Shown here piece after piece: positions 29,584 to 63,015 of a DNA stretch of 64,000 nucleotides (positions are counted from its first letter, which is position 1; every line of letters begins with the position of its first letter). Below the pieces are notes generated by a model that had not been told where the DNA came from, did no database searches, and saw only the letters and a program-made list of their open reading frames with translations. The stretch lies in IMG/VR virus record IMGVR_UViG_3300050120_000115, positions 24,954 to 88,953 of that record. The stretch is one strand, 5' to 3'. The position numbers and the translations under genes are program-made. Source of the stretch: a virus.

Positions 29584-30910
29584 AGATCTCTCGCAGTTTC
29601 GCCGTCCTGAAGGTTCTAAGAAGGACAAAAGTTCTACGTCACTAAATTGGGGTAAGAATGGTAACGCATCTGCAATTTTTTCCGGGGGCACAGAAATACC
29701 AACGGACGCAGACATTCGTGCGCTGCTTGAAAGAGTTGGCAAGAACCCAGAAGACTACAATTGGGAAATAGTATCTGTATCTTGGAACTCTGCCTCTTGG
29801 CACCGTACTGAAGATGTGGCGGCCCAGTCAGTAAAGCACAGTGCGTTTACTGCACCCTCATGTGTAGTGAATATTAAGATTGCTCCTAAGTCTGAAGACG
29901 GGGACATGACGGTAGAGATTCGTCAGGCTCCCCCGCTAAAGGTGAGCGTTCAATCTACTAATCGTCTTCCTAAGCGTCGTACATCGGACTCTCTTAATTG
30001 TGCCGTCATTTACGCCGACTCGCAAATTTGGTACTGGTGTGATGTAAATGGTGTATGGCACCCTACCCATGACGAAGCGGCCTTAGATATTGGACTTCAG
30101 ATTACTGCAGATGTAGAGGCGGAGCACGGCATTGATGTCATGGTTGACCTTGGAGACCTGGGCGACTTTCCTGTTGTATCCACACATCCTTCCCCGCTTG
30201 CCATGACTCTACACGCAAGCACGAATATGTCTGTTGCAAGAATCTCTCGCCTCATGGCAGAGCGTACCGCACTTAGTCCTAATGCAGAGATGCGCCGCTG
30301 GTTGCGTGGCAATCATGAACAGAGGTGGTCAGACTGGCTGGCTAATAATGCACCTCACTTGGTTGGGCTCAAGAGGGCCGGAGAAGATGACCATCTTCCT
30401 ATCCTAAGCCTTCAGTATCTTACAAGGTCAGAAGAATTGGGTTGGACACTGGGGGAGAGAAGTTATCCAAATGATATTTTCTGGCTCAATGAAAACACTC
30501 GATGCATTCATGGCACTCTCGGAAATACTCAGGTAGGAACTACCCTCAACAAATACTTACAGGAAGAAGTCAACACTATCGCAGGGCACACACCCCACGC
30601 AGGGCTGGCCTATAGAACTATCGCACGTCAGAACGGACCGCGCACGTACATCGCTTGTACTCCCGGAGGCTTTATGCGCCGCGACGGAATGGTACCATCA
30701 GGTAACAATAAGAACACCGACATGGGTCAACCTAGCCAGAGCGATGGAGTCGGTTGGGAGCAGGGTATGGCAATCGTTTTTTACACTCCCGGCGCGGGGA
30801 TAACGGTTCCACAGATAGAACACATTCCAATCTTCGACGGAAAGGCCGTATGGAGAGGTAAGGTATACACTGCTCGCTGTGACGTGGACGGTAACCCGTT
30901 AGATGTCTAG
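29576..30910 (+). CDS. Calcineurin-like metallophosphoesterase (MRE11-like, actinophage type)
   Basis: ADSQ, LGDLGD, GNHE, IHG and GHTPH metal motifs; WEQG. Confidence 0.75.
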   Translation: MTKDLSQFRRPEGSKKDKSSTSLNWGKNGNASAIFSGGTEIPTDADIRALLERVGKNPEDYNWEIVSVSWNSASWHRTEDVAAQSVKHSAFTAPSCVVNIKIAPKSEDGDMTVEIRQAPPLKVSVQSTNRLPKRRTSDSLNCAVIYADSQIWYWCDVNGVWHPTHDEAALDIGLQITADVEAEHGIDVMVDLGDLGDFPVVSTHPSPLAMTLHASTNMSVARISRLMAERTALSPNAEMRRWLRGNHEQRWSDWLANNAPHLVGLKRAGEDDHLPILSLQYLTRSEELGWTLGERSYPNDIFWLNENTRCIHGTLGNTQVGTTLNKYLQEEVNTIAGHTPHAGLAYRTIARQNGPRTYIACTPGGFMRRDGMVPSGNNKNTDMGQPSQSDGVGWEQGMAIVFYTPGAGITVPQIEHIPIFDGKAVWRGKVYTARCDVDGNPLDV

Positions 30911-31175
30911 TCCTAAGTACGACGAAACTCGTAAAGTACAGAAGCCTCCTCTGGAGGACGTACTGAGTGTCAAGCGCAAGCGAGCGTGGCTACCTGCCCC
31001 AGAGGGCGACGTTCCCTGCGATGTGTGTGGACTGTTGTGTCCCCTGAATCTTTATGAAGGCTTCGAAACTATTCATATAACCTGTAGTTACGGAGTGTCG
31101 GGGAAGCGCTGGGTGAAGGAACGTGCTAAGAGACTAAAGGCTGCTATGTTAGCTGGGAATAGTCTCGGAATCTAG
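30903..31175 (+). CDS. Hypothetical Zn-finger protein
   Basis: CDVC...H.TC; overlaps the upstream stop. Confidence 0.5.
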   Translation: MSSPKYDETRKVQKPPLEDVLSVKRKRAWLPAPEGDVPCDVCGLLCPLNLYEGFETIHITCSYGVSGKRWVKERAKRLKAAMLAGNSLGI

Positions 31176-31508
31176 GAGTTCGGAGTACGCTTCTTCAGGT
31201 TCCATTCCCCGCGCGGAGAATTCTGAACGTTGTTTGCTGGTAGATCCGCCCCACGTATCCGTCACTTCTGGATTTTCCATCGCGTAAGTAAAACACTCTT
31301 TACGAACTGGGCAACGTCTACAGATTTCCAATCCACGCTGAGCATATGCCGACTGGCCTTGGCCCGCGAACCACAGCTCCGTAGGTTCGCCGTTGCACAG
31401 AGCATCATACATCCATGGTGGGCGTTGACGACGTAACATCATTACAAAAGTGGCGATTTCCCATTCGGTAAACGAGATGACTGGATGAGAATCATTACTA
31501 TTGCTCAC
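31149..31508 (-). CDS. whiB: WhiB family transcription factor
   Basis: WM..ALC.....WF...ICRRCPVRKEC..YA...TWGG....R. Confidence 0.9.
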   Translation of the reverse strand: MSNSNDSHPVISFTEWEIATFVMMLRRQRPPWMYDALCNGEPTELWFAGQGQSAYAQRGLEICRRCPVRKECFTYAMENPEVTDTWGGSTSKQRSEFSARGMEPEEAYSELLDSETIPS

Positions 31509-31659
31509 TTAGGTTCAACTCCTTGTAAATATGGAGATGAGCTGCGGCATGAGCCATTGGGCGATTGGATTCCCTACCTGAAAGATTTCCACACGAACAT
31601 GTTAATTTAAAACCATCCCCATCTGGGGTAATGTCTACATAGTGTGTGGTATTCTTCAT
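31498..31659 (-). CDS. Small Zn-finger protein
   Basis: MKNTTH...CSCG...AAHLH; coupled to its neighbours. Confidence 0.5.
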   Translation of the reverse strand: MKNTTHYVDITPDGDGFKLTCSCGNLSGRESNRPMAHAAAHLHIYKELNLSEQ

Positions 31660-32133: not shown

Positions 32134-32136
32134 ACT

Positions 32137-32508: not shown

Positions 32509-32510
32509 GA

Positions 32511-32840: not shown

Positions 32841-32842
32841 GA

Positions 32843-33670: not shown

Positions 33671-34099
33671 CTAAAATGGAGGCTCTTCATCAAACGCATA
33701 CGTTACTGGAGCGGCCTTGGTATATCCATTTGTTTCGGAACGGGGAGTACGGAGAACTGAGGCAGTTGCCCATTTCAAACTTGGAGCAATTTCATCAGCG
33801 TTGATCTCAAATGCATTACGCTTCTCTCCAGTTACAGTTTCGTAGGAGCGCTGTTCTAGCCTACCCGTTACCACCACCCTGTCTCCCCGACCTAGAGAAA
33901 TAGCTACGTTCTCCGCTAGCGGACCATACGCAACCACGTCGAAGAAGGAGGTTGATTCCTCCCACTCTTGACTCTGACGATTCTGCCAGCGGCGATTGAC
34001 CGCTACTCCTAGCTGTACACTGGCCTGCCCTGAGTTCAGGAACTTAAGTTGTGGATCGCGAGTTACATTACCCGAAACCGTTATAGTGTTATCTGACAT
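33671..34099 (-). CDS. ssb: Single-stranded DNA-binding protein
   Basis: ITVSGN.TRDP.L.F...VAVNRRW...G.RV.V.GRLEQRSYET...ADEI.PSL, acidic DEEPPF tail; actinobacterial type. Confidence 0.95.
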   Translation of the reverse strand: MSDNTITVSGNVTRDPQLKFLNSGQASVQLGVAVNRRWQNRQSQEWEESTSFFDVVAYGPLAENVAISLGRGDRVVVTGRLEQRSYETVTGEKRNAFEINADEIAPSLKWATASVLRTPRSETNGYTKAAPVTYAFDEEPPF

Positions 34100-34326: not shown

Positions 34327-35139
34327 TTACTTTCTAGCCAACGGTGTGTAATTCGGGTGTGCCTCAAGCTTGGCCTTAACCCGCTTGAACTCGTCTACTG
34401 TCAACTCATCGTTGGCACTGATGCTCCGGCCAATGATGTTATCGATGAGGTCACGCATACCCTGGTCGTCCATTCCGATGTTCTTGATGGATACAGCCCA
34501 GATCATTTGAGACTGTGCTTTGGAAACGAGGGTTCCAGTGGGCGCTGGTGCGGAGCCTGCAGTGTTAGCGATCTTCTCGTTCATCCCCGTTGTCGGCGCC
34601 GGAGCAGAAGGTGCGGGTGCTGATCGAGATGACTGCTGATTTTGCGCCGGGGCGGGACGAGGGGTTTCAGGAGCGATACCCACTACCTTCGTACCTACTG
34701 TATCGGGATCTGGGTCACCAGTCACAAGCTTGAACTGCTGCTTATAAAAATACTTCTCAGCCATTGACATAGCCGCCGCCATGGATTTGTCGTTCGAGTT
34801 TTCATTCTCCCCGACAACGATTGCAGTGGTGTGAGAATTGTCAGGGCCGGTCATCTCGTAGGCCATAATGACCTGAGCCCAGTGCTGGTGACCGATTACC
34901 GTTCCTTCATGGTTGAAGATATCAGTATCCCACGACTTAGCACTCTGTAGCTGCGGAACAATATTAAGATTTTCCTCTACCAGAAGTGGCTGGATAGCCT
35001 CAATAATCTGCTCAATGCCTACAACCTTATAGTCCCTTCCGCCTCCGATGCCAGCTACCTCTACACCTTTTTGAAGACGGCCAACCCTTCCGGTAACGGC
35101 AAGAATAGCCTCGTGAACCGACTTTGAACCTACAGCCAT
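34327..35139 (-). CDS. ERF-family ssDNA annealing protein
   Basis: K......Y......I...I.PLL....L...G....DK....A.S.A.KY....F...TGD.DPD, then a Pro/Ala linker and C-terminal helical domain. Confidence 0.8.
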   Translation of the reverse strand: MAVGSKSVHEAILAVTGRVGRLQKGVEVAGIGGGRDYKVVGIEQIIEAIQPLLVEENLNIVPQLQSAKSWDTDIFNHEGTVIGHQHWAQVIMAYEMTGPDNSHTTAIVVGENENSNDKSMAAAMSMAEKYFYKQQFKLVTGDPDPDTVGTKVVGIAPETPRPAPAQNQQSSRSAPAPSAPAPTTGMNEKIANTAGSAPAPTGTLVSKAQSQMIWAVSIKNIGMDDQGMRDLIDNIIGRSISANDELTVDEFKRVKAKLEAHPNYTPLARK

Positions 35140-37201: not shown

Positions 37202-37431
37202 TATTTTTTACCTTTCGCGAGACGAATACTACGGGCGATATTTTCCTCTAGATCTATCTTACCACCATCATGCAGGGAGGCACACGTTGCGTGGACGTTG
37301 CCCAGTGAAATGCCGGTGGCTTTTTGAAGGTCGCGGTAGGACGGACCATAACTGCGCTCCTTGTACCACTCCTTAATAGCAGAGAGTACTATGCGTTCGT
37401 TGTCAAGTCGTTTGTCCATGGTGTTCATCAT
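37201..37431 (-). CDS. LexA-type winged-HTH DNA-binding domain only
   Basis: VL..I.......YGPS.RDL....G.S.G.V......L...G.I......ARSIRL; no S24 peptidase domain. Confidence 0.8.
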   Translation of the reverse strand: MMNTMDKRLDNERIVLSAIKEWYKERSYGPSYRDLQKATGISLGNVHATCASLHDGGKIDLEENIARSIRLAKGKK

Positions 37432-37625
37432 TTCCCCCGCGCCAAAAAAACTCCGAGTAATTCATCGTCACTCATTCGTTGGGCCGCCTTGTCGGTAGCA
37501 GGTGCCCAACCCCACCAATTACATTGGTGGCAATAGCAGGGGTTTCTATTTCCTTCTCCGTCATTACAATAATACTGAGGGGGGTCACTAGTTAGGATCA
37601 TTCTTGTATCAGGAATATGTCTCAT
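37428..37625 (-). CDS. Small Cys-rich protein
   Basis: MRHIPD...LTSDPPQYYC...C.CHQC; start uncertain. Confidence 0.45.
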   Translation of the reverse strand: MRHIPDTRMILTSDPPQYYCNDGEGNRNPCYCHQCNWWGWAPATDKAAQRMSDDELLGVFLARGK

Positions 37626-37939
37626 TCCTCCCCCTCCGAAAATTCTGCATCCCAATCCTCTGGTGTTCCAAGTCTCACTACGTGGATGAAGAAGTCTCCA
37701 TTATCGTCATCCATCTCCTTGTCGGACATTGGTACCCCAGCATGATTCATGCAGACTTGATCAGTACAGTAACCATTGTCTACTCCATACTGTAGCCACG
37801 TATCAAAGTTCATCTCCGGCGACTCAATTTTTTCGGCGGGGAGAATACGGGTTATACCAGGACCGCATATTGGACAGTCTTCGTCATCTAAGTGACTCGA
37901 CTCGTAGTGCGTTTGCGCTCCACAGTTATATATTCTCAT
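37622..37939 (-). CDS. Hypothetical acidic Cys/His protein
   Basis: F..WL.YG..NG.C...VC..H.G.P.S..E pattern. Confidence 0.55.
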   Translation of the reverse strand: MRIYNCGAQTHYESSHLDDEDCPICGPGITRILPAEKIESPEMNFDTWLQYGVDNGYCTDQVCMNHAGVPMSDKEMDDDNGDFFIHVVRLGTPEDWDAEFSEGEE

Positions 37940-39216: not shown

Positions 39217-41289
39217 ATGCACCAGGTTCCTCAACGTCATCTCGTCTGGCTAGACGGAGAAAAGATCAGGCTGCTCTTCAAACCACCGTTCAATAAGTTC
39301 GATGATTTTCTCAAAGAGGTGAGAGCGGTTACTGGTAGGTCGTGGGATGGTCAGCATAACATCTTTCCCCTAAGTTCTTCTGCAGAGGTACGTTCTTTGG
39401 TGGAGGCTTGGGAGATACCCGTCTCCCCCGAGGTCGAACTTTTAGAGGGATGGAATACCTACGTCGGTATGGTCAAGCGTGGACCCTACAACGTCTTCAT
39501 GGATCATAAGTCAGTGGTTATAACCTTTGATTATAACTCTACACTTATATCAGTAGTCCACCACTACATCCCTGGCGTGAACTGGCGGGGTTCCAATGGT
39601 ACTTACCGCGCTCCGGAGACGAGCGTTAATGAGGCCATCAAGTTTGCTCACGAGTTTGACCTCACGGTGGACCCGGAGATCGAAGCAAGAATACAGAAGG
39701 CAGTAGATGACGCAAAGGAATTGTATGAGCACTCAACTTTACTTGACTGGGATGAGTTCGAGATACCCGGACTCATACTTCCCCTTCGACCATATCAGCG
39801 TGCTGCTGTTGCGTATATGCAACGGGTTAGGCGCTGCATTTTAGCCGATCAACCAGGACTCGGTAAAAGCGTTTCGTCAATATCCACGGTAATCCTTGAT
39901 AAGTCGTTGCCGGTTGTGGTAGTCTGTAAGAACAGGTTGAAGGAGACTCTGCGCGAGGATTTCCTTAAGTTCTACCCCAATCTCAACATCACAATTTTGA
40001 ACGGGGGGAAACGACAAGAGATACCGAAGTCGGACGTGGTGATAGTTAACTACGACATAGCCAAGCAGCGACTAGAGGACATCAAAGAACATGGGTACAA
40101 ATCTCTCATCGTTGACGAGTCTCACTACATCAAGAACGGTAAGAAGCGATCCACCTGTACTGGGTGCGGGCACAAGGTCAACTCTAACGCAGTGAACTGC
40201 AAGGGGTGCGGTAAGACCGGAATCAAGGTTAACACTCGTTGGGATGTGCGTCGTACGGATGCGGTGATGCGTCTCTCAATGTCCCTCCCCCCCGAGGCGC
40301 TGGTGCTTTTACTTACAGGGACCCCAATCGGAATCCGCCCCGGTGAACTAATCCGTCAGTTGGAGTGCATCGACCGTCTAGATTTGTTCGGGGGAGAGTG
40401 GAGGTTCAGGAAAAGGTACTGTCCCGACAACAAGACAGCACTCAATCTCCAAGAGCTGAACACCAAACTGCGCGAGAACTGCTTTGTTCGCCGTAAGACG
40501 AGTGAGGTATATGGGCAACTCCCTCCCATTCAGAATTCCATCCAACGTATGGTTCTCACCGATGAGCAGATGAAGCGTTATAAGGAGATCGAAGCCGACA
40601 TCGTGGAGTACCTCGCGGAGAAGGCACGTCAAAAGGCCATCGACATGGGAGAAGATCACGATGCCGCTTACTGGAGCAAGCGTAACGCTGTCGAACGGGC
40701 TGAGGCTTTGGTCCGACTTAACACCCTACGTGGAGCTATTGTCGAGTTAAAATACGAGGCTGCCTTAGACTGGCTAGATACGTTCCTGGAAACAGGTGAC
40801 GAGCCGATACTCGTCTTTGCCAACCGAATCAAAATAGTGGAAGGGGTGTACAATCGATACATGGAGATGGCAGTTAAAGTCAGAGGAGACCTCACGAATG
40901 AGCAGGTACTGGAGAATGTCCACGTCTTCCAGGAACAGGATTGGTGTCGTATGCTTGTGGCTAACACGTCCTCTGCGAAAGAGGGTCTTACGCTCACTAA
41001 AGCATCGCATGTGGCCTTTTTAGAACTGGAGTGGAATCCAACAGACCATTCACAGGCTGTGAGCAGGGTTTACGGGCGCACAAACGATCCTCATGGAGCA
41101 GTTGCATACTATCTTCTAGCTCCTGGGACCGTGGATTACGATATGTATGCACTACTGCAAGAGCGTCAAAAAATTGTGGACGCGGTAACGGACGGTATTG
41201 AACTGGACGAGAAGCAACTAAGTATCGAGGACCAACTTATTAAGATGCTCGAAGAAAGAGGAGGATACAATGAGGCACTACGCAATTAG
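39217..41289 (+). CDS. SNF2/SMARCAL1-like helicase with N-terminal HARP-like domains
   Basis: LRPYQ, LADQPGLGKS, IVDESH, LTGTP, EGLTLT, WNP....QA..R; start reassigned to leaderless ATG 39217. Confidence 0.9.
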   Translation: MHQVPQRHLVWLDGEKIRLLFKPPFNKFDDFLKEVRAVTGRSWDGQHNIFPLSSSAEVRSLVEAWEIPVSPEVELLEGWNTYVGMVKRGPYNVFMDHKSVVITFDYNSTLISVVHHYIPGVNWRGSNGTYRAPETSVNEAIKFAHEFDLTVDPEIEARIQKAVDDAKELYEHSTLLDWDEFEIPGLILPLRPYQRAAVAYMQRVRRCILADQPGLGKSVSSISTVILDKSLPVVVVCKNRLKETLREDFLKFYPNLNITILNGGKRQEIPKSDVVIVNYDIAKQRLEDIKEHGYKSLIVDESHYIKNGKKRSTCTGCGHKVNSNAVNCKGCGKTGIKVNTRWDVRRTDAVMRLSMSLPPEALVLLLTGTPIGIRPGELIRQLECIDRLDLFGGEWRFRKRYCPDNKTALNLQELNTKLRENCFVRRKTSEVYGQLPPIQNSIQRMVLTDEQMKRYKEIEADIVEYLAEKARQKAIDMGEDHDAAYWSKRNAVERAEALVRLNTLRGAIVELKYEAALDWLDTFLETGDEPILVFANRIKIVEGVYNRYMEMAVKVRGDLTNEQVLENVHVFQEQDWCRMLVANTSSAKEGLTLTKASHVAFLELEWNPTDHSQAVSRVYGRTNDPHGAVAYYLLAPGTVDYDMYALLQERQKIVDAVTDGIELDEKQLSIEDQLIKMLEERGGYNEALRN

Positions 41290-41556: not shown

Positions 41557-42516
41557 ATGAGTAAAGAGGTTGAGGTTCGCGCCTATAGATTTTCCATTCT
41601 GCCCGAGTGGATTTTATCAAAAGACATTAGCCATGCTGCCATCAGGCTTTTTTGTGTCCTTAATAGATGGCTAGGAGAAAACGATTACGTTTGGCCGTCC
41701 AGGAAAACAATAGCAGAGAGAATGGGGTGCTCTGTGAATACCGTAGACAGGGCTATAGATGAGCTTGAAAAAATAGGGGCCATAAGTGTAGAGCACCGAT
41801 CAGATAGCAACGGAGCCCCTACTAGTTCCCTTTTCTATCTATGGCCCGCTACTTTTGGGGGTACCCCCATGGGTGGGGAGACCCTCCCTGGGTGGGGAGA
41901 CCGTACCCCCATGGGTGGGGAGACCGTACCCCCAAAACAGGTATACAATAGAGATACAATTAAAAGAGAAACAATTAAAGAGAATTCTTCTACTCCCACC
42001 CCTCCGGGGAGTGAGAAGTGGACGGACGAAGTTAAAGAACTCACCTCCCTTCTCTGCCATTGGAATGTCGAGAACGGATACAAAGCGTTTACCCTAGGTC
42101 CTAAGCAGTGGGCTGACATGGATAAGTTGTTGAGGATTGACAAGCGCTCGCCGGATGAAGTTAGATCTATCATCGAATGGTGTCAGAAGGATGCGTTTTG
42201 GAACGGAAATATCCGTAGTACTTTGAAGTTGCGTAAGCAGTTCGATACCTTGGTAGGGAGGATGCGCCAGCAGGGGTGTCTCCCTCCAATCCCCTCAGAG
42301 ATCTCCCTTTCCCCCGACCAAAAAAATGTTGCGCTTATTTTCGACTGCTATGACCAGGGAGGAGAGTGGTTCGACTTCACGACTGAGGAATTCTTACTTG
42401 ACAATCCCGTTTCCTTCGGCTATAATCGTCCTAGGGATGCTCGGGGAAATATGGTTGACGCGGACGGGAAACCGTACAAGATGACCGCCCAGGGCCAGAG
42501 AGTGAGGTTGGAATAG
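41557..42516 (+). CDS. Replication initiator protein (lambda O-like, N-terminal wHTH)
   Basis: WPSRKTIAERMGCS..TVDRAI.EL...G HTH; C-terminal W...MDKLLRID.R...I.W.Q.D.FW..NI.S..KLRKQFD; internal iterons. Confidence 0.85.
   Translation: MSKEVEVRAYRFSILPEWILSKDISHAAIRLFCVLNRWLGENDYVWPSRKTIAERMGCSVNTVDRAIDELEKIGAISVEHRSDSNGAPTSSLFYLWPATFGGTPMGGETLPGWGDRTPMGGETVPPKQVYNRDTIKRETIKENSSTPTPPGSEKWTDEVKELTSLLCHWNVENGYKAFTLGPKQWADMDKLLRIDKRSPDEVRSIIEWCQKDAFWNGNIRSTLKLRKQFDTLVGRMRQQGCLPPIPSEISLSPDQKNVALIFDCYDQGGEWFDFTTEEFLLDNPVSFGYNRPRDARGNMVDADGKPYKMTAQGQRVRLE
41853..41990 (+). repeat. Iteron array and AT-rich tract (putative replication origin)
   Basis: TGGGTGGGGAGACC x3 (41870, 41889, 41912); 23-bp unit x2; followed by ACAATTAAA(A)GAGAA x2. 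Confidence 0.75.
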
Positions 42517-45839: not shown

Positions 45840-46007
45840 AATGTGCTATACTTTCCGTCATTCCCCCGAACCAAAAAATTAAAGGACTATTATGACCATT
45901 GAAGAATTAGGGAATCTATTAGAGGATCTCCTGAATGAACTAAGAAATCTTAACGAGAATCTCATGGTGCTTAACTTTGAAAACGCTCGCGAACGTGGTA
46001 ACGTTTA

Positions 46008-48356: not shown

Positions 48357-48859
48357 CGGTAGTAGTTGCGTACACAACAAAGGACGAGTGCTGGATGGCT
48401 AGCGATTCAGCTAGCTCTGATGGAGCTTCGATTGAGGAGGCTGTTACCCCTAAGGTTATGAGACACGCTGGTGGAGGGTTGATTGGTTCAGCCGGATCGT
48501 GGCTTCTCCTTAACCTTCTCTACCCCCTTCAAAAAAAGAAGTGTGAAGTTTCTGATGTGCTAGATATCATTCGCATCGTCAAAGATGGCCCGCACGCGGA
48601 AGAATTGGATGGTGCAGAAGTTCTAATGGCGTGGCCCGGTAGGCCATTGGTGGTTGTCTATAGTGGTGGGTATTATGTAGAACTCAAGTCCCCGTACACG
48701 GCCATCGGCGTGCCAAAATACGCCCTTGGATTTTTGGAAGGGGCGAAGGACGAGATCGATGGAACAGTACTCAAGAAAGCCGTCACCATCTCAGCAAAAT
48801 ATTCAACATCAGTAGGACTACCCGCTAAACTACTACACGTTACGAAAGGATCAGAGTAG
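48353..48859 (+). CDS. Ntn-hydrolase, HslV/proteasome-beta-like protease
   Basis: M-T-VVVA...MASDS...K...IG.AGS...AIG N-terminal Thr nucleophile pattern. Confidence 0.65.
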   Translation: MTVVVAYTTKDECWMASDSASSDGASIEEAVTPKVMRHAGGGLIGSAGSWLLLNLLYPLQKKKCEVSDVLDIIRIVKDGPHAEELDGAEVLMAWPGRPLVVVYSGGYYVELKSPYTAIGVPKYALGFLEGAKDEIDGTVLKKAVTISAKYSTSVGLPAKLLHVTKGSE

Positions 48860-48860: not shown

Positions 48861-49205
48861 TTGATTAGAGAATTATTCAATGGAGAGCAACGAGGCGAGT
48901 GTCGGGGAGACTGGGAGCATTTCAAATTCAATAGCAAGAAGAGCGCTGTCACCATGGCCATGTGCGATAGGTGTGTGGTGCGAGAGGCTTGCTTAGAATA
49001 CGCACTGGAACACGAGTCCTATGGAATTTGGGGCGGGGCAAATGAAAAAGACAGGAAGAAGATCCGCAAAGAACGTGGCATCCCCCAACCCCCACTGCTT
49101 GGCTATTACAACCCCCTGTTCCCCGTGAACGTAAAAATTACCAACGCCCGCAGCGCCCAGCGTATGAGGGAGATGCGATACCGCAGACAGGAAGAATCAG
49201 TATGA
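48861..49205 (+). CDS. whiB: WhiB family transcription factor (second copy)
   Basis: C.G....F...MCDRC.VREACLEYAL...YGIWGG..E..R. Confidence 0.9.
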   Translation: MIRELFNGEQRGECRGDWEHFKFNSKKSAVTMAMCDRCVVREACLEYALEHESYGIWGGANEKDRKKIRKERGIPQPPLLGYYNPLFPVNVKITNARSAQRMREMRYRRQEESV

Positions 49206-51248: not shown

Positions 51249-51313
51249 GGTTTTTAGACTTCTTTAGTTATCCGTCTTCCCCCGGCCTAAAATTTAGATG
51301 CGAGAAGGCGGGA

Positions 51314-51460: not shown

Positions 51461-51684
51461 GAATTTTCCTCGCTCGGGGGAAGGGACAAGCCGGGAACGA
51501 AGTCCACCTTCATAAGTCCAATGAACTGAGTGTAGTCTAGTGTAGGGATATTAGAATACATTGCTCCACAGGTCGGGCACTCTGCCTCCTTGCCTCCCCA
51601 GCTGTCCACCCAGTCTCCGCATTCCGCGCAACTAAAAATAGAGTACTCTATTGCTACGTCTACAGCTATCGGCTCTGGTCTCAT
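51454..51684 (-). CDS. Small Zn-ribbon protein
   Basis: CAECG...CPTCG; ATGA-coupled start at 51684. Confidence 0.55.
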   Translation of the reverse strand: MRPEPIAVDVAIEYSIFSCAECGDWVDSWGGKEAECPTCGAMYSNIPTLDYTQFIGLMKVDFVPGLSLPPSEENSW

Positions 51685-51950: not shown

Positions 51951-52354
51951 GCTTCCTCATACCCGTCGAGCTGCTGTACAGCGTAGTTGATCATACTGTC
52001 ACAGAATATCTTTTGACTCGAAAAAAACCACGCGGGGCAGACGGAATTATAGATGTAGTGTCCGACGAGTTTGATCAACTGAAGAGGGCTCTCTAGGGAG
52101 TCGTTGCGGTCCCACGAGTACTTGACTCGTTCCGGTAGGTTCTCTTCCCCCCCGGCCAAAATTGCGGAGGCTTCTCGGTTCATGTTGATGAGCCACTCGC
52201 CAAGCTGATTCTGAGTTAAGAACTGCCACGACAATGCGGGCTTATCTACTTCAGACGCTTCAAAGTCTAGCATGAGCACGCTATTCTGCGAGCTATCCCA
52301 GGCTACTGTCGTGATAGCGTCAATTTCATCTTTGGAAAGCAAAGACATTTTCAA
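51947..52354 (-). CDS. Hypothetical conserved phage protein
   Basis: First gene after a promoter; G..L...N..S...KL...Y.Y.S...W..S pattern. Confidence 0.6.
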   Translation of the reverse strand: MKMSLLSKDEIDAITTVAWDSSQNSVLMLDFEASEVDKPALSWQFLTQNQLGEWLINMNREASAILAGGEENLPERVKYSWDRNDSLESPLQLIKLVGHYIYNSVCPAWFFSSQKIFCDSMINYAVQQLDGYEEA

Positions 52355-52947: not shown

Positions 52948-53399
52948 GTAACATTTTTCAAATCGGGGATTGGGTCAGGTTCAAGGATGAAGACGACTTT
53001 GGTCTAAGTACGCACCTTAAGGTGGTAGACTTGAAACCAGTTGGGAATGGGAATGAGTTTAGTTACACTCTTTTTGACCCCGCATCCCCCGATGCTGAAA
53101 TTAAGAGCTATGGCTCCGAACTGGAACTCGTGGAAATTCTTGAAAGGGGGAAGACGGAACCAAAGACGAAAACCACCTACAGGATGGCAAACGGAGACCT
53201 TATCTATGGAGAGTACAGCTATGTAGGGGACCTAGAATTCTTTGAGGATAGTGATGAACCTACTGAACTAGTGAAAGAGACATGGGTACTCGTGTCTTCA
53301 GAACAGCTCACTATCCCCGGACTAGATTCAGAGGATGACAATTACGAAGACGACATTGTTCAAGCCGATGATTTACACCGATACAGCATGGGAGGATAA
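52944..53399 (+). CDS. KOW/SH3-like domain protein, acidic
   Basis: FQIGDWVRFK...Y.L......ELELV. Confidence 0.55.
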   Translation: MSNIFQIGDWVRFKDEDDFGLSTHLKVVDLKPVGNGNEFSYTLFDPASPDAEIKSYGSELELVEILERGKTEPKTKTTYRMANGDLIYGEYSYVGDLEFFEDSDEPTELVKETWVLVSSEQLTIPGLDSEDDNYEDDIVQADDLHRYSMGG

Positions 53400-53401: not shown

Positions 53402-53599
53402 ATGGAGATCATTGAGGACAGATGGACCGCAGTAAACGGAAATGTTTGGACCAGAGAAGAGTTTTTAGATAAGATGGAGTGGGAGGGTGGTCTGGTAGAC
53501 ATGATCGGTTGGGGTGGTGCTGGTTGCTTCCCTCCGTCTCTCCGCGAGATGGCTAAGAGTATTGAGGATTTTGAGTTCGGGGAGGACGAAGGTGAATAA
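53402..53599 (+). CDS. Small acidic protein
   Basis: GGAGG RBS; KMEWEGG motif. Confidence 0.6.
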   Translation: MEIIEDRWTAVNGNVWTREEFLDKMEWEGGLVDMIGWGGAGCFPPSLREMAKSIEDFEFGEDEGE

Positions 53600-53939
53600 G
53601 CAAGAGGCACTAAAGAGTGCAGAAGATTCAATAGGTTTAGCCAGGACTGCTGGAACAGGCTACTTACCAGCGTATTATCTTGCTAGAGCACAAGTATATT
53701 CTACACTAGCTATAGCGCTCAAGGAGGAGCCTGTCCCCAATTCCGTTCCCCCCGTCCGAAAATTTAGTGGGCCGGGAGATGATGAGTACAATCAGGGGTA
53801 TGAGCAAGGACTATATGATGGAGCACACGACCTAGCAAAGTTAATTGACAATTACACCAACGATCCCTACAAGCCTTACGAGGCAAAAATTCAATTGATA
53901 CGCGAATCGTGTGGGTACGTTCTTGAGGTGGAAAAATAG
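53592..53939 (+). CDS. Hypothetical protein
   Basis: GTG start at 53592 (MNKQEALK...); AQVY.TLA, Y.QGYEQG motifs. Confidence 0.55.
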   Translation: MNKQEALKSAEDSIGLARTAGTGYLPAYYLARAQVYSTLAIALKEEPVPNSVPPVRKFSGPGDDEYNQGYEQGLYDGAHDLAKLIDNYTNDPYKPYEAKIQLIRESCGYVLEVEK

Positions 53940-54091
53940 TGTCATTAACTTTTGACGACATGGAACCCGAAGAGGATTACGGACTGAACGACTGGCTAGA
54001 GCAATTGCTGGAAGAGACCTGGCTCGAATTTTTAGAGGCGGGGGAAGAGGAAATGCACGAAGGAGAGGACGCGGATGAACTCGATGAATGA
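53939..54091 (+). CDS. Extremely acidic 50-aa protein (not in ORF track)
   Basis: TAGTG-coupled with GAGGTGG RBS; 22 D/E and no K/R. Confidence 0.55.
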   Translation: MSLTFDDMEPEEDYGLNDWLEQLLEETWLEFLEAGEEEMHEGEDADELDE

Positions 54092-55496
54092 CCTAGAGAC
54101 AACTGTTATGAAGATTGTCCACTTGGTGGAGGACGTCTACGGTCACGCTATCATTGTCGGGGGTGCCGTTCGTGATTTCTACATGTCCGGCGAGGCAGAT
54201 ATTTTTGAGTCTGCTACGGATATTGACCTAGAGATTTTCGGACTTCCCTGGGGGGACGTGAAGTGTATCCTAGAGGCTCTGGAGCTTGAGTACGATGAGG
54301 TTGGCGAACAGTTCTGTGTCTTGAAGATCAAGGGTCTCCCCATCGACATCTCCATTCCCCGCCGCGAAAATGTAACTGGTGCTGGGCACAAGGACTTCGA
54401 CGTTATCGGTGACCCTCATATGTCATTCGAAGAGGCTGCTAAGCGTCGTGATTTCACGATGAACGCCATGGGCTGGAACCCGACGACTAAGACATTCATC
54501 GATCCATATCATGGACGTTTAGCCATAGAATTAGGTAGGATATTTCATGTATCTAATAAATTCAGTGAAGACCCATTGCGACCAATCCGTGGTGCAAGAT
54601 TCTCTGCTAGATTTGGAATGATACTTTCTGGGCCAACTGGTGAATTGTGTTTTATTATGAATGAATCGATTAGTGACTTACCATCTGAGCGTATATGGAT
54701 GGAATTCAGACGTGCTCTTCTAGAGTCATACAAACCATCAACCTTTTTTTGGGAACTTGATTTAATGAAATGGTTAGAAGGTATTTTCCCAGAAATATCA
54801 GCATTGCAGGGTGTAATTCAAGATCCTGAATGGCATCCAGAAGGGGATGTTTATGCACACACGATGCACGCACTAGATTACTGGGCGCAGAATCTTAAGA
54901 CCGGCAACGACGAGGACGATTTGATCGTGGCGCTCTCCGTCCTGTGTCACGACTTTGGCAAAGTTTCTACTACAGAGTTTGTGGACGGAAAAATTCGTGC
55001 GCGGGGACACGAGGAGGCTGGAGCAGAACCCACCAAGAACTTCTTGCACCGTATGCGTCAGTACGAACTCGCTAAGCAGGTAATCCCCATTGTTGAGAAC
55101 CATCTGTACCCGCTCCATGTGGACCAATTTTCCGCGCGGGGGATACGGAGACTGGCAACGAAGGTCCCACGACTTGACCTCCTAGCCATCGTCTCAAGAG
55201 CAGACGTAGCAGGTAGACCCCCTATCGACCCAGCAAACTCCTTTGCCAAGATTGACGAGTTCGAGCGTATGGTGAGTTTAGTAGATTCTCCAGTAGGCGG
55301 CCCTAAGCGTTTGGCGACTGGGGATATGCTCATTGATATGGGTCTCTCCCCCGGTCCAGAATTTAAGGTCATCTTAGACCACGCTTATGAGTTGCAGTTA
55401 GACGGGATCATTAGCGATTCAGAAGATGCTTTGGAAGTATTGCATCAGCTGTTAGACGGTCCCATGACCGCCTACGGACACAATTTAGAAGATTAG
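54075..55496 (+). CDS. cca: Class II CCA-adding tRNA nucleotidyltransferase with HD domain
   Basis: VGGAVRD, DIDLE, RRDFTMNA, EDPLR..R..RF, ERIW.E, HPEGDV..H, LCHDFGK, GHE. Confidence 0.9.
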   Translation: MNSMNDLETTVMKIVHLVEDVYGHAIIVGGAVRDFYMSGEADIFESATDIDLEIFGLPWGDVKCILEALELEYDEVGEQFCVLKIKGLPIDISIPRRENVTGAGHKDFDVIGDPHMSFEEAAKRRDFTMNAMGWNPTTKTFIDPYHGRLAIELGRIFHVSNKFSEDPLRPIRGARFSARFGMILSGPTGELCFIMNESISDLPSERIWMEFRRALLESYKPSTFFWELDLMKWLEGIFPEISALQGVIQDPEWHPEGDVYAHTMHALDYWAQNLKTGNDEDDLIVALSVLCHDFGKVSTTEFVDGKIRARGHEEAGAEPTKNFLHRMRQYELAKQVIPIVENHLYPLHVDQFSARGIRRLATKVPRLDLLAIVSRADVAGRPPIDPANSFAKIDEFERMVSLVDSPVGGPKRLATGDMLIDMGLSPGPEFKVILDHAYELQLDGIISDSEDALEVLHQLLDGPMTAYGHNLED

Positions 55497-55570
55497 TTAT
55501 CCACAACCCATTTTGACCAGGGGAAAGACGGAATCTAAAGATTTGCAAACGAGGATAAGTGTGCTATACT
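55497..55570 (+). promoter_or_regulatory. DnaA-box-like 9-mer and extended -10 promoter upstream of the Rpf-like gene
   Basis: TTATCCACA at 55497-55505; TGC-TATACT at 55562-55570. Confidence 0.55.
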
Positions 55571-55643: not shown

Positions 55644-56057
55644 GTGTTTAAAAACATCAGAATACTAGTAGTAACCCTTTTTTTGTCCTTGTCCGTCTTC
55701 GTCGTTCCGGCTCCGGCTGGTGCGGCACCTATTCATCATCATCCAGTAGTTATTCATCAAGTGGTCCACAAGCCTGTGGTCGCTTCAAAACCCCTCGTTT
55801 CCCCCCTCCAAAAAATTCAGTGGTCGTGGGTCGGATTTTGTGAAACGCATGACGACTGGACCATGGAAGGCTCTCTTTACGCCGGAGCACTTGGCATCAC
55901 AAGGACTAATTGGATTGCCTACGGGGGGAGACGGTTCGCTTACGACGCAGCCCACGCGACCCCTTCAGAGCAGATCTATATAGCAACAGTTATCAACAAG
56001 GGTTATCCAGTGCCCGACCAACCTACTGGAATTTACTGTGACCCGCGAGGATGGTAG
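55644..56057 (+). CDS. Secreted resuscitation-promoting-factor (Rpf)-like transglycosylase
   Basis: Signal peptide (...APAGA); W....CET...W......Y.G.LG.....W..YGG.....A..AT..EQI..A...GW Rpf domain. Confidence 0.8.
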   Translation: MFKNIRILVVTLFLSLSVFVVPAPAGAAPIHHHPVVIHQVVHKPVVASKPLVSPLQKIQWSWVGFCETHDDWTMEGSLYAGALGITRTNWIAYGGRRFAYDAAHATPSEQIYIATVINKGYPVPDQPTGIYCDPRGW

Positions 56058-56290: not shown

Positions 56291-56912
56291 CCGGGTTAGG
56301 ATCAGAAATATGACGTATGGCGCTAGTCCTACGTATGTGGGCAGAACTGGTACTATTGACGAACGCTCTAACTCTGATTTATTCGGGGAACCTGCTTACT
56401 GGATTTATTTAGATGATTCTGAGAGGGGATTTAACGGTAAGGGTATTTTTACTGTTTCAGAGTTGGAGTTGCTTCCAGAAACCACGTCTTCCCCCGAGAC
56501 AATTTTTGATGTAGGAGACAGGGTCATATCCACGAAAGATGGCTTAAGGGGGGTAGTAACGGAGCTTGTAAATTCTCGTAACTCTGATTTTTACTTCGTA
56601 TGGGTTAGGTTTGATGGCCCTGGCTTCTCGGAGACTCGCAGAGATTCAGAACTCGTATTCGAGGGCGAGCCGATCAAAACCTTCACCGGATATCGCACCG
56701 GGGATATAACGGACACTCATAACGAAGACCAACGTAATGATAGCAAGGAACCTCAGTACTATGGATGTGTATTCCCAAATGGACGCACAGTACTTTCTTG
56801 GAACACTTCTGTAGAGTCCCTTTCTGTATTTGACTCCTACGCCGAATTCGAAAAAATACACGGACATTACGAAGACGGTTATGGAACCTTCATAGCATGG
56901 GACAAGAAGTAA
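56262..56912 (+). CDS. Protein with two KOW/SH3-like modules and a conserved actinophage C-terminal domain
   Basis: FKKGDRVRI, FDVGDRV; G.VF.NG..VL.W.....S..VFDS......IHGH...GT.I.W. Confidence 0.6.
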   Translation: MEKKIFKKGDRVRIRNMTYGASPTYVGRTGTIDERSNSDLFGEPAYWIYLDDSERGFNGKGIFTVSELELLPETTSSPETIFDVGDRVISTKDGLRGVVTELVNSRNSDFYFVWVRFDGPGFSETRRDSELVFEGEPIKTFTGYRTGDITDTHNEDQRNDSKEPQYYGCVFPNGRTVLSWNTSVESLSVFDSYAEFEKIHGHYEDGYGTFIAWDKK

Positions 56913-58648: not shown

Positions 58649-58938
58649 CAATTCTATTCTGGATAGTAGTAGCAGCGTTATTCTTCATTGGTATGGGTAT
58701 TGCAGATTCTTTGCACTATCAGCGCTCGCTCCGTGATTCCTTTACTTCCCCCGATCCAAAAAGTTATGCGCTTCTTCAGACCTACGGCTTTCAAGTTAAG
58801 TACTCTCCGCTGGTCGAACTTGGTACCGTGTTGCTCATCAAGGGATCATCAATTTTGGACCCGGACTATGCCGTATTTTCCGGCGCGGGAGACTGGGAAG
58901 ATGATTGGCAGAATTTCCTAGACCTGGAAGAGGATTAA
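58645..58938 (+). CDS. Membrane-anchored hypothetical protein
   Basis: N-terminal TM helix; AAGGAGG RBS. Confidence 0.55.
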   Translation: MTILFWIVVAALFFIGMGIADSLHYQRSLRDSFTSPDPKSYALLQTYGFQVKYSPLVELGTVLLIKGSSILDPDYAVFSGAGDWEDDWQNFLDLEED

Positions 58939-60123: not shown

Positions 60124-60134
60124 AGGAGGTAATT

Positions 60135-60392: not shown

Positions 60393-60397
60393 CGCTA

Positions 60398-60925: not shown

Positions 60926-61737
60926 CCTGTCCCTATGCAGCACACTACTTTAACTCAGGATTTACTTGGGATCGTATTATGTATTGCACAGGATGTGGTA
61001 GGCCTATCGACATCCCCATTTCCCCCGACCAAAAAATTGAGACCGCCGAAAGCGAGAAGACCATGACAAAGACTCGACTGATCCGAGAAGACGAACTAGA
61101 ACTTAAGGTAGGTGACACGGTTGTCAAGCGAAACGGCATCGGATACGGCTACAGTCGTACAGTTATAAAGATAGATATTATTCCTAATACTGGAGTGCGA
61201 GTCTGGACCGGCCCCGCTTGTTACGATTGGTATCAGGATCTGATAAAGGAGACTACTGTAAAGAGGGTCGAAACACATACGGACCTTGTTCACACGTTTC
61301 TAGAGGCCCCCCACCTTGAAGTGCTCCTCCCCGAGAAGGGGGTATTCAAGCCTGGTGATAAGGTCTATTATCGCATACCTGGCGACAAGACCGGTGATTA
61401 CTATCCAGGTATTGTTTCTGGGGTTAGAAATACCTGTTACGATGGGACTCCAGTAGAGGCCGGATGGGAAATGATTGACCTTAAAAGCGGTGGATTCGTT
61501 TATTTGAGGGACTTGAGGCACGAATGGGAACTCGAAGAAGATACCAAGAAACCATCTCGCGGAATTTTCAAGCGCGGGGATGAGGTATATTGGGACACAG
61601 CCCAGACGGCCCTAACTCCGAAGGCACATCGACGCTATGAGGTGGTGGGGGGGAAATTTGGTGATAAGGTGATGTTCCAGTCAGGTGGATGGGCTTTTGA
61701 AGGAAACGTACACCATCTTTACGAGGAGAACGAATAG
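60919..61737 (+). CDS. Protein with three KOW/SH3-like modules
   Basis: LKVGDTV, FKPGDKV and FKRGDEV repeats; N-terminal Cys knuckle. Confidence 0.6.
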   Translation: MVACPYAAHYFNSGFTWDRIMYCTGCGRPIDIPISPDQKIETAESEKTMTKTRLIREDELELKVGDTVVKRNGIGYGYSRTVIKIDIIPNTGVRVWTGPACYDWYQDLIKETTVKRVETHTDLVHTFLEAPHLEVLLPEKGVFKPGDKVYYRIPGDKTGDYYPGIVSGVRNTCYDGTPVEAGWEMIDLKSGGFVYLRDLRHEWELEEDTKKPSRGIFKRGDEVYWDTAQTALTPKAHRRYEVVGGKFGDKVMFQSGGWAFEGNVHHLYEENE

Positions 61738-62531
61738 TGCTGAGTGCTGACTCTGTCCTATTCGTTGGAGATACACACGCCAACACGACCTGGCTCCGTA
61801 AGACCGTCCTTCCCCGCGCCGCCGAATTAGAGGTGGACGCTATATTCCAGTTAGGTGATTTTGGATACTGGCCCATTAGGGGCAACAAATTTCTAGAAGT
61901 AGCGGCCAACGCTCGTAAGACCCACGGTGTTGATGTATGGTTCATCGACGGTAATCACGACGACCATGTTTCATTGCGTAAGGATTATCTGAAGACATTC
62001 GTTGGAACTGATGAGCGTTTTCCAGCGGAACTTTCTCCTGGATTTTTCTATCTCCCGCGCGGAAGTAGGGTTGAGGTAGCAGGACTCTCTGTAGCCTGCA
62101 TGGGTGGCGCGCACAGCATCGACCGTGCATTTCGCACGCCGGGGGAAGACTGGTTCCCGGAAGAGCAAATTACCGAAGAAGACGTAGAGGCCGCACTGAA
62201 GAACCCCAGAGCAGACATACTAGTGACTCACGATGCTCCAGCAGGGTGGGAGATTCCTGGGCTCATGCCGAGATCTTCCCTTCCCCGCGAGTGGCAAAAA
62301 GAATTGCCCGCTTGTGAGGCCCACCGTGAAAAGCTAGCCGAAGTACTCAATATTGTTCAGCCAAAAGTATTAGTGCACGGACACTATCACGTAGGGTATT
62401 CCAAGACCGTTGACATGCCCTGGGGAGCGCTAGACGTGTCAGGATTGAACTGTGAATTCACGGCGCGCTGGGGAATGGTGATATACAAGAGGGAAGACGG
62501 ATTCGATTTAGTATGGGAGAATGATCTGTGA
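61737..62531 (+). CDS. Calcineurin-like metallophosphoesterase
   Basis: GDTHAN, LGDFG, DGNHD, GGA.SID, THDAP, HGHYH. Confidence 0.9.
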   Translation: MLSADSVLFVGDTHANTTWLRKTVLPRAAELEVDAIFQLGDFGYWPIRGNKFLEVAANARKTHGVDVWFIDGNHDDHVSLRKDYLKTFVGTDERFPAELSPGFFYLPRGSRVEVAGLSVACMGGAHSIDRAFRTPGEDWFPEEQITEEDVEAALKNPRADILVTHDAPAGWEIPGLMPRSSLPREWQKELPACEAHREKLAEVLNIVQPKVLVHGHYHVGYSKTVDMPWGALDVSGLNCEFTARWGMVIYKREDGFDLVWENDL

Positions 62532-62887
62532 AAACACTTGATAAACCAGTCGAAGTCGGAATACGTAAGTTATGCACCACCCAAGAAGAGGTGGATTTCT
62601 GGACCGAACGTTTCAATTTTTCGGGCGGGGAAGATACGGACCTTCCAGAATACGACCGTATGAAAGATGCCATGGTACAGGCAACCGTAAGGTACCGCGA
62701 GATTATAATGGACCCTCAGGGCTATCTCGATTCTCTAAAGATACCTGGCGGCGTGGACGAAGAAGAACGTCAACTGGCCGTGGCAATCCACTATGCCAAG
62801 AAGTTCGTAGGGTCATACGATATAGCACGCTATATACTTGATGGAATAGAGTCCGGCAGACTACTTTCCTCGCTGCCCCCTTTCTAA
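62528..62887 (+). CDS. Hypothetical protein
   Basis: GTGA-coupled ORF. Confidence 0.55.
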   Translation: MKTLDKPVEVGIRKLCTTQEEVDFWTERFNFSGGEDTDLPEYDRMKDAMVQATVRYREIIMDPQGYLDSLKIPGGVDEEERQLAVAIHYAKKFVGSYDIARYILDGIESGRLLSSLPPF

Positions 62888-63015
62888 AAATTTCCTAGCG
62901 CTCATGTAAATGAATCATGAGCCTATTTCCCCACATCACGTCATGTGTGCGTATCTCCACATTTTGGGCGACGCGCAGAGACGGACCCCTCAAAAGCAAT
63001 TTATTTATGTAGGGT

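Follow-up and report, generated by a model that had tools for sequence, protein, structure and literature searches.

How does a DNA word of ~25 bp come to stand at some forty places in a phage chromosome, mostly within genes and in either orientation, and what might read it there? This question is raised by a stretch of 64,000 nucleotides (the window, which throughout means the whole stretch that was analysed) comprising bases 24,954-88,953 of IMG/VR record IMGVR_UViG_3300050120_000115 (G000), the genome of an uncultured actinobacterial phage of ~89 kb (88,953 bp, rated 100% complete by CheckV). The element has the form tCCGTcTT-C4-7-G-N3-7-A4-6-TT, is asymmetric and bipartite, and was picked out in an original prediction, made from the letters of the window, as a dispersed motif that might mark the genome. 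The motif is a real signal in the DNA with ~40 copies, it is selected at the DNA level, and it is lineage-specific and kept at orthologous sites.

Copy number and anatomy of the motif

All 13 copies quoted in the original prediction are exact, each of them occurring once and where it had been placed in the window. Two checks had been proposed, counts against codon- and dinucleotide-preserving shuffles and a measurement of the spacing with every C-run scored, and both speak for the motif. On the two strands of the whole genome there are 531 C-runs of at least four bases, and the nearest AAAA beyond a C-run most often follows after 4, 5 or 6 nt (12, 13 and 7 cases), whereas the other distances form a flat background of 1-4 cases each. 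C-runs with AAAA 3-6 nt further on number 35 in 88,953 bp as compared to 8.4±3.1 (maximum 20) in 200 dinucleotide shuffles, 10.7±2.3 (maximum 19) in 200 codon-order shuffles and 14.0±2.8 (maximum 23) in 200 synonymous-codon shuffles, and it is the excess over the two latter nulls that bears out the claim of selection at the level of DNA. A stricter pattern, TCCCC+[GT]N2-7 followed by AAAAT or AAATT, is found 26 times versus 8.1±1.7 times in shuffles, and the most over-represented octamers of the genome are TTCCCCCG (21 versus 3.3 expected) and TCCCCCGA (17 versus 2.3).

For a scan of the entire genome a two-block weight matrix was trained solely on 29 copies from a relative of the phage (relative B, see below), so that the scan of G000 is not circular; it replaced a self-trained matrix, which drifted and gave 90 'hits' at 14 bits. 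At the threshold used for sites, 16 bits or more, 42 sites are found in G000 versus 2.5±1.5 in 20 dinucleotide shuffles and 13.4±2.3 (maximum 21) in 200 synonymous shuffles, and at 18 bits 31 sites remain versus 0.8 in dinucleotide shuffles. The 13 quoted copies are all within this set, and 38 of the 42 sites fall within the window, close to the roughly 40 that had been estimated by eye. The accompanying estimate of ~30 copies in 51-63 kb was somewhat high, as 21 sites lie in window 51.2-64 kb and it takes the looser self-trained model to reach 29 there. A scan of IMG/VR for TTCCCCCG-N3-6-AAAATT returned at least 119 stretches; among the 80 listed there was one double match and the rest were single.

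Each copy consists, in this order, of a pyrimidine-rich stretch of 12-20 nt with the consensus tCCGTcTT, a run of four to seven C, usually a G, a GC-rich spacer, four to six A, and TT; beyond the A-tract no base is conserved. Between the C-run and A-tract blocks there are 3-8 bp. This spacing appears variable because it is taken between the inner ends of the runs, whereas the distance between the outer edges is tight: counted from the first C to the last A it amounts to 14-16 bp for 45 of the 57 clean copies (standard deviation 1.4). From the last C to the last A it is 9-11 bp in 46 of the 57, which is about one helical turn. The lengths of the runs compensate for the gap, a longer run going with a shorter spacer (r = -0.51 for the A-run, r = -0.29 for the C-run).

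Placement in the genome and conservation among relatives

Where do the copies lie? By a greedy map of open reading frames (ORFs) of our own, which is crude and on which all placements in ORFs rest, 37 of the 42 sites are inside ORFs and five are intergenic. Among the genic ones 22 run in the direction of the gene and 15 are antisense to it (binomial P=0.32), and codon phases 0, 1 and 2 are all used, in agreement with the predicted location mostly within ORFs and in either orientation. By strand, 26 of the 42 sites are on plus and 16 on minus. At 12 bits, 45 co-oriented matches are observed versus 6.9 in the codon-shuffle null and 38 antisense ones versus 11.3; antisense matches exceed sense matches in the null because coding strands are purine-rich, and both orientations are therefore strongly enriched. 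The relative position of the copies within genes spans 0.04 to 0.98, and their spacing along each strand is irregular. Intergenic copies adjoin consensus promoters at genome 843 (outside the window) and at window 45855 and 55508, as does a sub-threshold C-run/A-tract at genome 11234, also outside the window.

Along the chromosome the density is uneven. In genome coordinates, leftward genes occupy 0-14 kb, rightward structural genes 14-56 kb, leftward recombination genes 56-64 kb, and rightward replication genes together with many small genes 64-89 kb. Measured against the synonymous-shuffle null, the left arm holds 4 sites versus 2.5 (0.28/kb), the structural genes 6 versus 1.8 (0.14/kb), genome 56-76 kb 11 versus 4.1 (~0.5-0.6/kb) and the right arm at genome 76.2-88.95 kb 21 versus 5.1 (1.65/kb). 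Copies had been described as sparser in the tail genes, and the contrast between 0.14/kb in the structural genes and 1.65/kb in the right arm agrees with this. The further claim that apparently foreign blocks are free of copies holds at 16 bits or more, with a post hoc P of ~0.03 (six sites on 12.1 kb, of which ~5.3 kb are foreign). To speak of genome marking was too strong, since the motif covers the non-structural part, chiefly one 12.7-kb arm, and not the whole genome.

How old is the motif, and in which phages is it found? A query with the tail sheath protein yielded 59 related IMG/VR loci, and relatives were further sought with the CCA-adding enzyme, a 272-aa right-arm protein, the replication initiator, the SNF2 helicase and a three-sequence SNF2 alignment; among the loci from these five queries only G001 and relative B form a close clade with G000. 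G001 (L075-L079) is the sole long close relative, with 95,949 bp, syntenic and ~65-78% identical in nucleotides over 39 kb. It is without the motif (3 matches to the strict pattern; 12 weak matrix matches versus 2.5 in shuffles). These 12 weak matches are all on the minus strand; two are orthologous to G000 copies and others resemble the reverse complement of purine-rich ribosome-binding regions. Nor is the motif present in the more distant G002-G005 (1-10 matches versus 2.5-3.6 expected) or in 12 distant CCA-enzyme loci. Relative B is known from fragments and is incomplete (L016 and L017 with 89% and 82% sheath identity, L213 with 7.9 kb, L200 and L199 with 14 kb), and it carries 29 copies in 22 kb (21 in L200, 8 in L213) with the consensus ccGTCTCCCCCG-N3-5-AAAAATT. 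Of these, 13 are sense, 13 antisense and 3 intergenic, again in all codon phases, and genes of B without a counterpart in G000 carry copies too.

Orthologous positions separate the two relatives. A motif of at least 14 bits is retained at 11 of the 14 G000 sites with an alignable counterpart in B and at 3 of the 17 with one in G001. Identity to B is 83.2% within the motif versus 76.8% in the flanks (Fisher P=0.006), and identity to the motif-less G001 66.0% versus 73.2% (P=0.004). At window 39992-40015 nearly the same peptide, (I/V)LNGGK, is encoded in both phages, and the codons that spell the motif are used in G000 and B, not in G001. Since the alignments to orthologous G001 sequence mostly show substitutions rather than insertions (39992, 54348, 55125 and 55340 are without indels; a few others have small ones), the motif was written in place. 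A mobile mini-element, that is an insertion resembling miniature inverted-repeat transposable elements (MITEs) or repetitive extragenic palindromes (REPs), was rejected as its origin on the same mostly indel-free alignments.

The family possesses another dispersed word, an intergenic promoter with a 16-bp palindromic operator, ATCGCGCGCGCGAT, flanked by an upstream GAATCACC / GAATCCCCGG element on one side and an extended -10 (TGnTAcACT) on the other. G001 has ~30 copies of it, at 83-96 kb and 0-2 kb, and it is strongly enriched in G003, G004 and G005; two or three copies are found in L200 of relative B and a single one in G000 (window 63749-63764, promoter context ~63725-63785). Across G000, B and G001 the abundance of the motif and that of the operator are thus roughly complementary. 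The two are alike as dispersed words of the same lineage that are concentrated in the right-arm or early region, and unlike in that the operator is palindromic, intergenic and embedded in promoters. At L200 13480-13560 of relative B two facing copies of the motif share an A/T tract, TCCGTCTCCCCCC-tcag-AATTTTT-ggg-CGGGGGAAACGGA, directly 5' of an operator-type promoter, so that both dispersed words are juxtaposed there.

Candidate readers and competing explanations

What might act on the copies? With some reserve, they may be regarded as putative recognition sites on duplex DNA for one sequence-specific DNA-binding protein, encoded by phage or host, a reading that we prefer and yet hold to be possible rather than probable. 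A duplex recognition site for one protein is the simplest account because the motif is asymmetric, has a geometry kept to ±1 bp, is indifferent to orientation and frame, is orthologously kept and is confined to a lineage. The putative protein would read three patches, spaced by roughly a helical turn, on one face of ~25 bp, namely CCGT, TTCCCCCG and, about one turn further, A4-6TT, the A-tract perhaps by way of its narrow minor groove. As the site is asymmetric with ±1-bp play, it could be imagined that the reader is a monomer with two modules, or else a base-reading domain with a minor-groove arm lying on the A-tract. A precedent is a monomeric phage repressor with two domains and an asymmetric site, as set out in one report (PMC9283540). 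The architecture of the reader would be analogous to, yet distinct from, that of the two-domain stoperator repressors. Such a protein may coat, bend, silence or otherwise organise the non-structural part of the chromosome rather than occupy a classical promoter operator, the organising role being likelier because the copies lie in either orientation, are intragenic and are concentrated in non-structural, presumably early and middle, regions. The clustering in these regions, together with several intergenic copies near promoters, suggests a role in organising or timing the expression of the non-structural part.

A number of observations weigh against a dedicated binding protein. Lsr2, HU/IHF, sigma70_r2, HTH_3 and HTH_17 were not found in the G000 genome, nor were AT-hook or SPKK-type peptides. 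Among the proteins of G000, DNA binding can be recognised in two WhiB proteins, a weak LexA-like winged helix and an HTH_36 initiator, and all of them are present in the motif-less G001 with 54-69% identity. The WhiB genes lie at window 31149-31508 (minus strand) and 48861-49205, the gene for the winged helix at 37201-37431 (minus strand) and that for the initiator at 41557-42516; small basic ORFs are found at 41270-41422 and 58481-58648. The excess of conservation towards B is modest (83% versus 77%) and comes from 14 sites, conservation of the protein accounts in part for some copies, such as the two in the CCA-enzyme gene, and the motif-bearing relative is a single and incomplete one. Moreover, we know of no regulatory precedent in actinophages for intragenic sites in both orientations. 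For the protein-site interpretation of the original prediction this means that selection at the DNA level in both orientations and all phases stands, whereas none of the readers proposed there could be tied to the motif: the phage genome has no gene for Lsr2, and it speaks against the initiator that B has the motif but iterons of the G001 type. Genes common to G000 and B and absent from G001 encode HNH endonucleases, a 50-aa basic ORF product (window 41270-41422) and acidic or unknown proteins, a profile that is weak because B is incomplete. Since no reader gene was found and the recognisable binders also occur in G001, a host factor common to G000 and B is as likely as a phage factor.

How does the motif compare with known families of dispersed sites? 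Cluster A stoperators (L5 gp71, the TipsytheTRex repressor) are described as lineage-specific sites with more than 20 dispersed asymmetric copies, as 13-mers located in promoters or short intergenic spaces, oriented with transcription and inactive when inverted (PMC9283540). The motif is like them in having many asymmetric copies (42) dispersed over an actinophage genome and in being lineage-specific, and unlike them in being a bipartite element of ~25 bp instead of a 13-mer, intragenic in 37 of 42 cases and antisense in 15 of 37. As to a cognate repressor, there is no match to HTH_3 or HTH_17 and only the weak LexA-like winged helix in G000. The motif is therefore not a member of the stoperator family, on account of its position, its orientation (22:15 in G000, 13:13 in B) and its length and bipartite build; the original prediction had likewise set it apart from stoperators. 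The prediction was also right to set the motif apart from start-associated sequences, given the relative gene positions of 0.04-0.98. These sequences (SAS/ESAS) of Cluster K mycobacteriophages lie just 5' of start codons; like the motif they are short conserved words that occur many times in an actinophage genome, and unlike them the motif is found at all gene positions. IHF-type sites are asymmetric, extend over ~25-35 bp, have an A-tract one turn from the core and are used in either orientation. The motif may resemble them in the geometry of A-tract and core; its core sequence is unrelated and the phage has no gene for an HU/IHF fold. For the actinobacterial mIHF we know of no consensus. The conserved inverted repeats of phiC31 and the MotA boxes of T4 are further systems for comparison. 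General full-text literature searches gave no description of the motif, word searches being unreliable for sequence motifs.

The motif belongs to a known kind, dispersed phage cis-sites, with a real chance of a new reader and mechanism. Families of stoperator-like sites showed that one phage protein can control a whole genome and explained the immunity groups of actinophages; the design in G000 is a different one, with longer, bipartite, intragenic sites in either orientation that are confined to the non-structural part. It is conceivable, if doubtful, that G000 uses a private, orientation-independent cis-code in which ~40 asymmetric 25-bp sites, created by point substitution in non-structural coding DNA, would let a reader of a novel kind organise or switch a whole arm and would largely have replaced the palindromic operator, which relatives employ dozens of times. 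If true, this would be a new mode of global control of a phage genome, unlike stoperators in being intragenic, orientation-blind and bipartite; if the copies are instead docking sites of a host nucleoid protein, they would still be a host-range marker for uncultured actinophages. With 42 sites mapped, of which 11 are conserved in relative B, there is a handle for finding the reader and for asking how coding sequence absorbs a second layer of information. The comparison of G000 with G001, which is 70% identical, without the motif and furnished with ~30 operator-promoters, amounts to a natural experiment in regulatory turnover.

Could the motif instead be a strand-specific signal on one DNA strand, at which an HNH endonuclease of the phage nicks or priming starts? 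This is unlikely. The motif is indeed asymmetric and of similar density on both strands (26 plus, 16 minus), several HNH endonucleases are encoded, and a family of HNH_3 paralogues is present in G000 and B and not in G001. But the copies are irregularly spaced along each strand, free-standing HNH genes are sporadic selfish elements anyway, and a primase or polymerase was not recognised among the scanned proteins.

Promoter-like elements for a host RNA polymerase remodelled by WhiB on region 4 of sigma-A, giving sense and antisense transcripts, are quite unlikely as well. The C-run block would serve as a box at ~-30 to -17 and be followed by a weak -10-like NAAAAT, in analogy to the MotA/AsiA middle promoters of T4. 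The two WhiB genes fit such a scheme, and so do the scarcity of consensus promoters in the right arm, the A at -11 and T at -7 that the A-tract plus T always supplies, and the 4 of 11 co-oriented right-arm copies that lie in the final 10% of their gene (P ~0.02). Against it, 15 of 37 genic copies in G000 and 13 of 26 in B are antisense, no base is conserved 3' of the A-tract, copies occur at all relative gene positions, both WhiB proteins are shared by the motif-less G001, and G000 owns a strong promoter set of its own. This set consists of ~15 near-perfect copies of acTTGACA-N17-TGCTATACT, few of them in the right arm, and its words are over-represented (ACTTGACA 15 versus 3.2 expected, GCTATACT 13 versus 2.6). 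An ordinary sigma-70/sigma-A promoter was rejected, since the blocks of the motif are 3-8 bp apart instead of 16-18 bp and the TTGACA-N17-TGCTATACT set is separate from it.

It is improbable that the motif is a site of sequence-specific DNA modification or is used to tell self from non-self. Selection at the DNA level, independence of orientation and absence from recently acquired blocks would suit such a target, and a DUF4406/dNMP-kinase protein encoded in G000 hints at an unusual nucleotide metabolism. On the other side, genes for C5 and N6/N4 DNA methyltransferases are absent from the G000 genome, a mark concentrated in a 12.7-kb arm is unable to protect 89 kb, and a 25-bp target with ±1-bp play is unlike the sites known for methyltransferases.

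Very unlikely, and largely refuted, is a functionless by-product of base composition, of codon-pair or peptide preference, or of common descent of the copies. Synonymous shuffles still yield 13.4 matches, so that part of the signal resides in the protein sequences, some G001 copies persist through conserved peptides, and C-runs themselves are in excess (531 versus 466±15). Yet none of 200 shuffles came above 21 where 42 sites are observed, both orientations and three phases are used, a matrix from another genome retrieves the copies, and copies stand in non-homologous genes of two phages. In addition, compared with its flanks the motif is better preserved in the alignments to B and worse in those to G001, and most alignments show point changes and not insertions.

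There is only a slight chance that the copies are preferred sites of action of the type IA topoisomerase I of the host. The mycobacterial enzyme binds in a bipartite, asymmetric manner and cleaves C(G/T)CT↓T(C/G); it acts sequence-specifically, requires a length of at least 20 nt and shields the DNA upstream of the hexamer (PMC6379724). The host is actinobacterial, judging by the WhiB and Rpf-like genes, the G000 consensus includes GTCTTC, a match in 5 of 6 positions, and a host factor would account for the restriction to a single lineage. The exact hexamer C(G/T)CTT(C/G), however, occurs in 3 of 42 sites versus 17 of 487 control C-runs and a relaxed 5-mer in 11 of 42 versus 52 of 487, and the consensus of B, GTCTCC, is without the TT; at the position where C is expected there is a G. 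The strong site (STS) of TopoI was rejected as the defining feature, given the exact hexamer in just 3 of 42 sites.

Least probable of all are two further possibilities. Secondary binding sites of the replication initiator were considered since the initiator gene contains a lambda-O-like origin (window 41853-41990) with three iterons GGGTGGGGAGACCGTACCCCCAT (window 41861-41930), a flanking inverted repeat TTTTGGGGGTAC/GTACCCCCAAAA and then an AT-rich stretch. The supposed common core is GTCTCCCC; the iterons hold GGTCTCCCC on the opposite strand, and iterons as well as the N-terminal half of the initiator differ between G000 and the motif-less G001. But B, which shares that different N-terminal half with G001 and whose initiator is only 53% identical, combines the motif with G001-type iterons (GGGGGTGCAG...), so the motif does not co-vary with the DNA-binding domain of the initiator and the iteron link was rejected; nor does G000 contain dispersed 13- to 17-mers that resemble the iterons. 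An RNA-level element (protein binding, mimicry of Shine-Dalgarno (SD) or anti-SD sequences, a processing site) or a hot spot or boundary of mosaic recombination, for which one could cite a slight co-oriented excess (22 to 15), the anti-SD-like pyrimidine tract with its SD-like reverse strand and the gene-cassette indels between strains in the right arm, is largely refuted by the counts: antisense copies match sense ones in quality, a motif stands within 15 bp at 2 of 30 strain-level joint ends (2.05 at random), and equally at 2 of 38 ends of homology segments shared with B and 3 of 36 of those shared with G001 (~2 at random). A structured RNA or intrinsic terminator was likewise rejected, as no Rfam family matches in window 29-64 kb and six copies fold no better than shuffles and share no fold (z -1.1 to +0.9).

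Map of the copies and the genome around them

Table 1. Motif copies and promoter elements mapped in the window. Positions are those of the window; scores are bits from the matrix trained on relative B.
Feature	Position	Strand	Bits	Remarks and scores in relatives
Motif copy, weak region, structural module	919..945	+	18.5	
Motif copy, atypical	4249..4269	+	18.0	gap 0
Motif copy, structural gene	15659..15685	+	20.9	
Motif copy, structural gene	23790..23817	+	17.9	
Motif copy, structural gene	23844..23869	-	16.6	
Motif copy	27392..27418	+	16.7	
Motif copy, SSB gene	33726..33754	-	16.2	
Motif copy, Erf-like annealing protein gene	34637..34661	-	18.9	
Motif copy, antisense to gene	37426..37453	+	20.5	
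Motif copy, antisense	37625..37645	+	19.5	matrix gap 0
Motif copy	37825..37850	-	21.8	quoted at 37826
Motif copy, SNF2 helicase gene, antisense	39992..40015	-	22.5	B 21.0 (retained), G001 -6.7 (lost by synonymous codons)
Motif copy, SNF2 helicase gene, antisense	40380..40402	-	17.9	B 16.6
Motif copy, initiator gene	42303..42329	+	26.6	quoted at 42308; B 23.4, G001 8.2
Intergenic copy, immediately 3' of TGCTATACT -10 element, 5' of DnaB gene	45855..45881	+	23.2	
Motif copy, antisense	48728..48752	-	16.3	
Motif copy, WhiB gene	49112..49140	+	23.6	
Intergenic copy	51271..51295	+	24.8	near-consensus, TCCGTCTTCCCCCG-gcct-AAAATTT
Motif copy	51461..51488	-	23.6	
Weak copy	51615..51641	+	16.1	CCGCG in place of C-run
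Motif copy, antisense	52141..52164	+	23.4	B 23.6 (retained), G001 7.6 (absent)
Motif copy	53078..53103	+	18.6	
Motif copy, antisense	53566..53591	-	22.9	
Motif copy	53741..53765	+	25.4	
Motif copy	54026..54052	-	25.9	quoted at 54027; G001 3.3
Motif copy, CCA-adding enzyme gene	54348..54373	+	21.1	B 21.3, G001 7.7
Motif copy, CCA-adding enzyme gene, antisense	55125..55150	-	25.2	B 25.2, G001 17.5 (mostly retained via protein sequence)
Weak copy, CCA-adding enzyme gene	55340..55364	+	16.9	B 12.0
Intergenic copy between DnaA-box-like TTATCCACA (55497-55505) and extended -10 promoter	55508..55531	-	18.0	
Motif copy, Rpf-like transglycosylase gene	55794..55818	+	22.4	
Motif copy	56483..56505	+	18.5	
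Motif copy	58740..58765	+	20.7	quoted at 58746; B 15.9
Motif copy, antisense	58873..58897	-	18.5	B 21.5
Motif copy, ~20 nt 5' of ribosome-binding site and start codon	60545..60569	+	20.4	B 26.2
Motif copy	61014..61039	+	25.7	quoted at 61019
Motif copy, antisense	61562..61588	-	18.2	
Motif copy	62614..62639	-	22.6	quoted at 62615; B 21.1, G001 18.7
Motif copy, gene 3' end	62868..62893	+	18.7	
Promoter -10 hexamers	35172, 39153, 39204, 42421, 49955, 52375, 52547, 56167, 63691			six more in the first 14 kb of the genome

What kind of phage carries these copies? G000 has a GC content of ~48% and, by a match to a tail sheath protein, a contractile tail; it is a tRNA-rich myovirus of lytic appearance in which an integrase or repressor was not recognised. 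An actinobacterial host is indicated by two WhiB genes and one gene for an Rpf-like transglycosylase. Recognised replication genes encode an SNF2 helicase, the HTH_36 initiator and a DnaB helicase with a LAGLIDADG intein, recombination genes RecA, a YqaJ exonuclease, an Erf-like annealing protein and SSB (the last by Pfam), and other genes the CCA-adding enzyme, an RNA ligase, a Cpn10-like protein and several HNH endonucleases. Cultured actinophages are only distant, with at most 29% identity to the sheath protein by tblastn, and a megablast search with window 51-63 kb as query found nothing among 50,697 phage records. Near-identical sequence is contained in peat metagenomes, and none of the listed sequencing runs with such sequence is an RNA dataset.

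Contigs of four runs are strain variants of G000 with gene-cassette indels and 380 variant places; peat is the habitat of the source run (X1) and of run X5. Near-identical strains in runs X2-X4, whose habitat is unrecorded, are missing whole cassettes at window 58936-59627, 51460-51972, 52568-52779 and 61532-61718; in one case the lost cassette coincides exactly with the RNA ligase gene, the joint skipping 690 bases in runs X2 and X3. These cassette differences between strains show that the right arm is undergoing gene gain and loss at present.

The HNH_3 endonuclease has two paralogues in G000, at window 33219-33668 and 63016-63528, both on the minus strand, none in G001 and one in relative B (L200 ~4140-4600); further HNH genes lie in the left arm of G000. 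The DnaA-box-like TTATCCACA listed in the table is a perfect one and stands in the intergenic space after the CCA-enzyme gene; the window contains two such boxes versus 0.55 expected, which may be chance. Finally, a canonical intrinsic terminator is found at window 31944-31975, with a CCCCCC / GGGGGG stem, an 8-nt loop and ATTTTTG, and since its stem uses CCCCCC, C-runs in G000 serve ordinary hairpins too.

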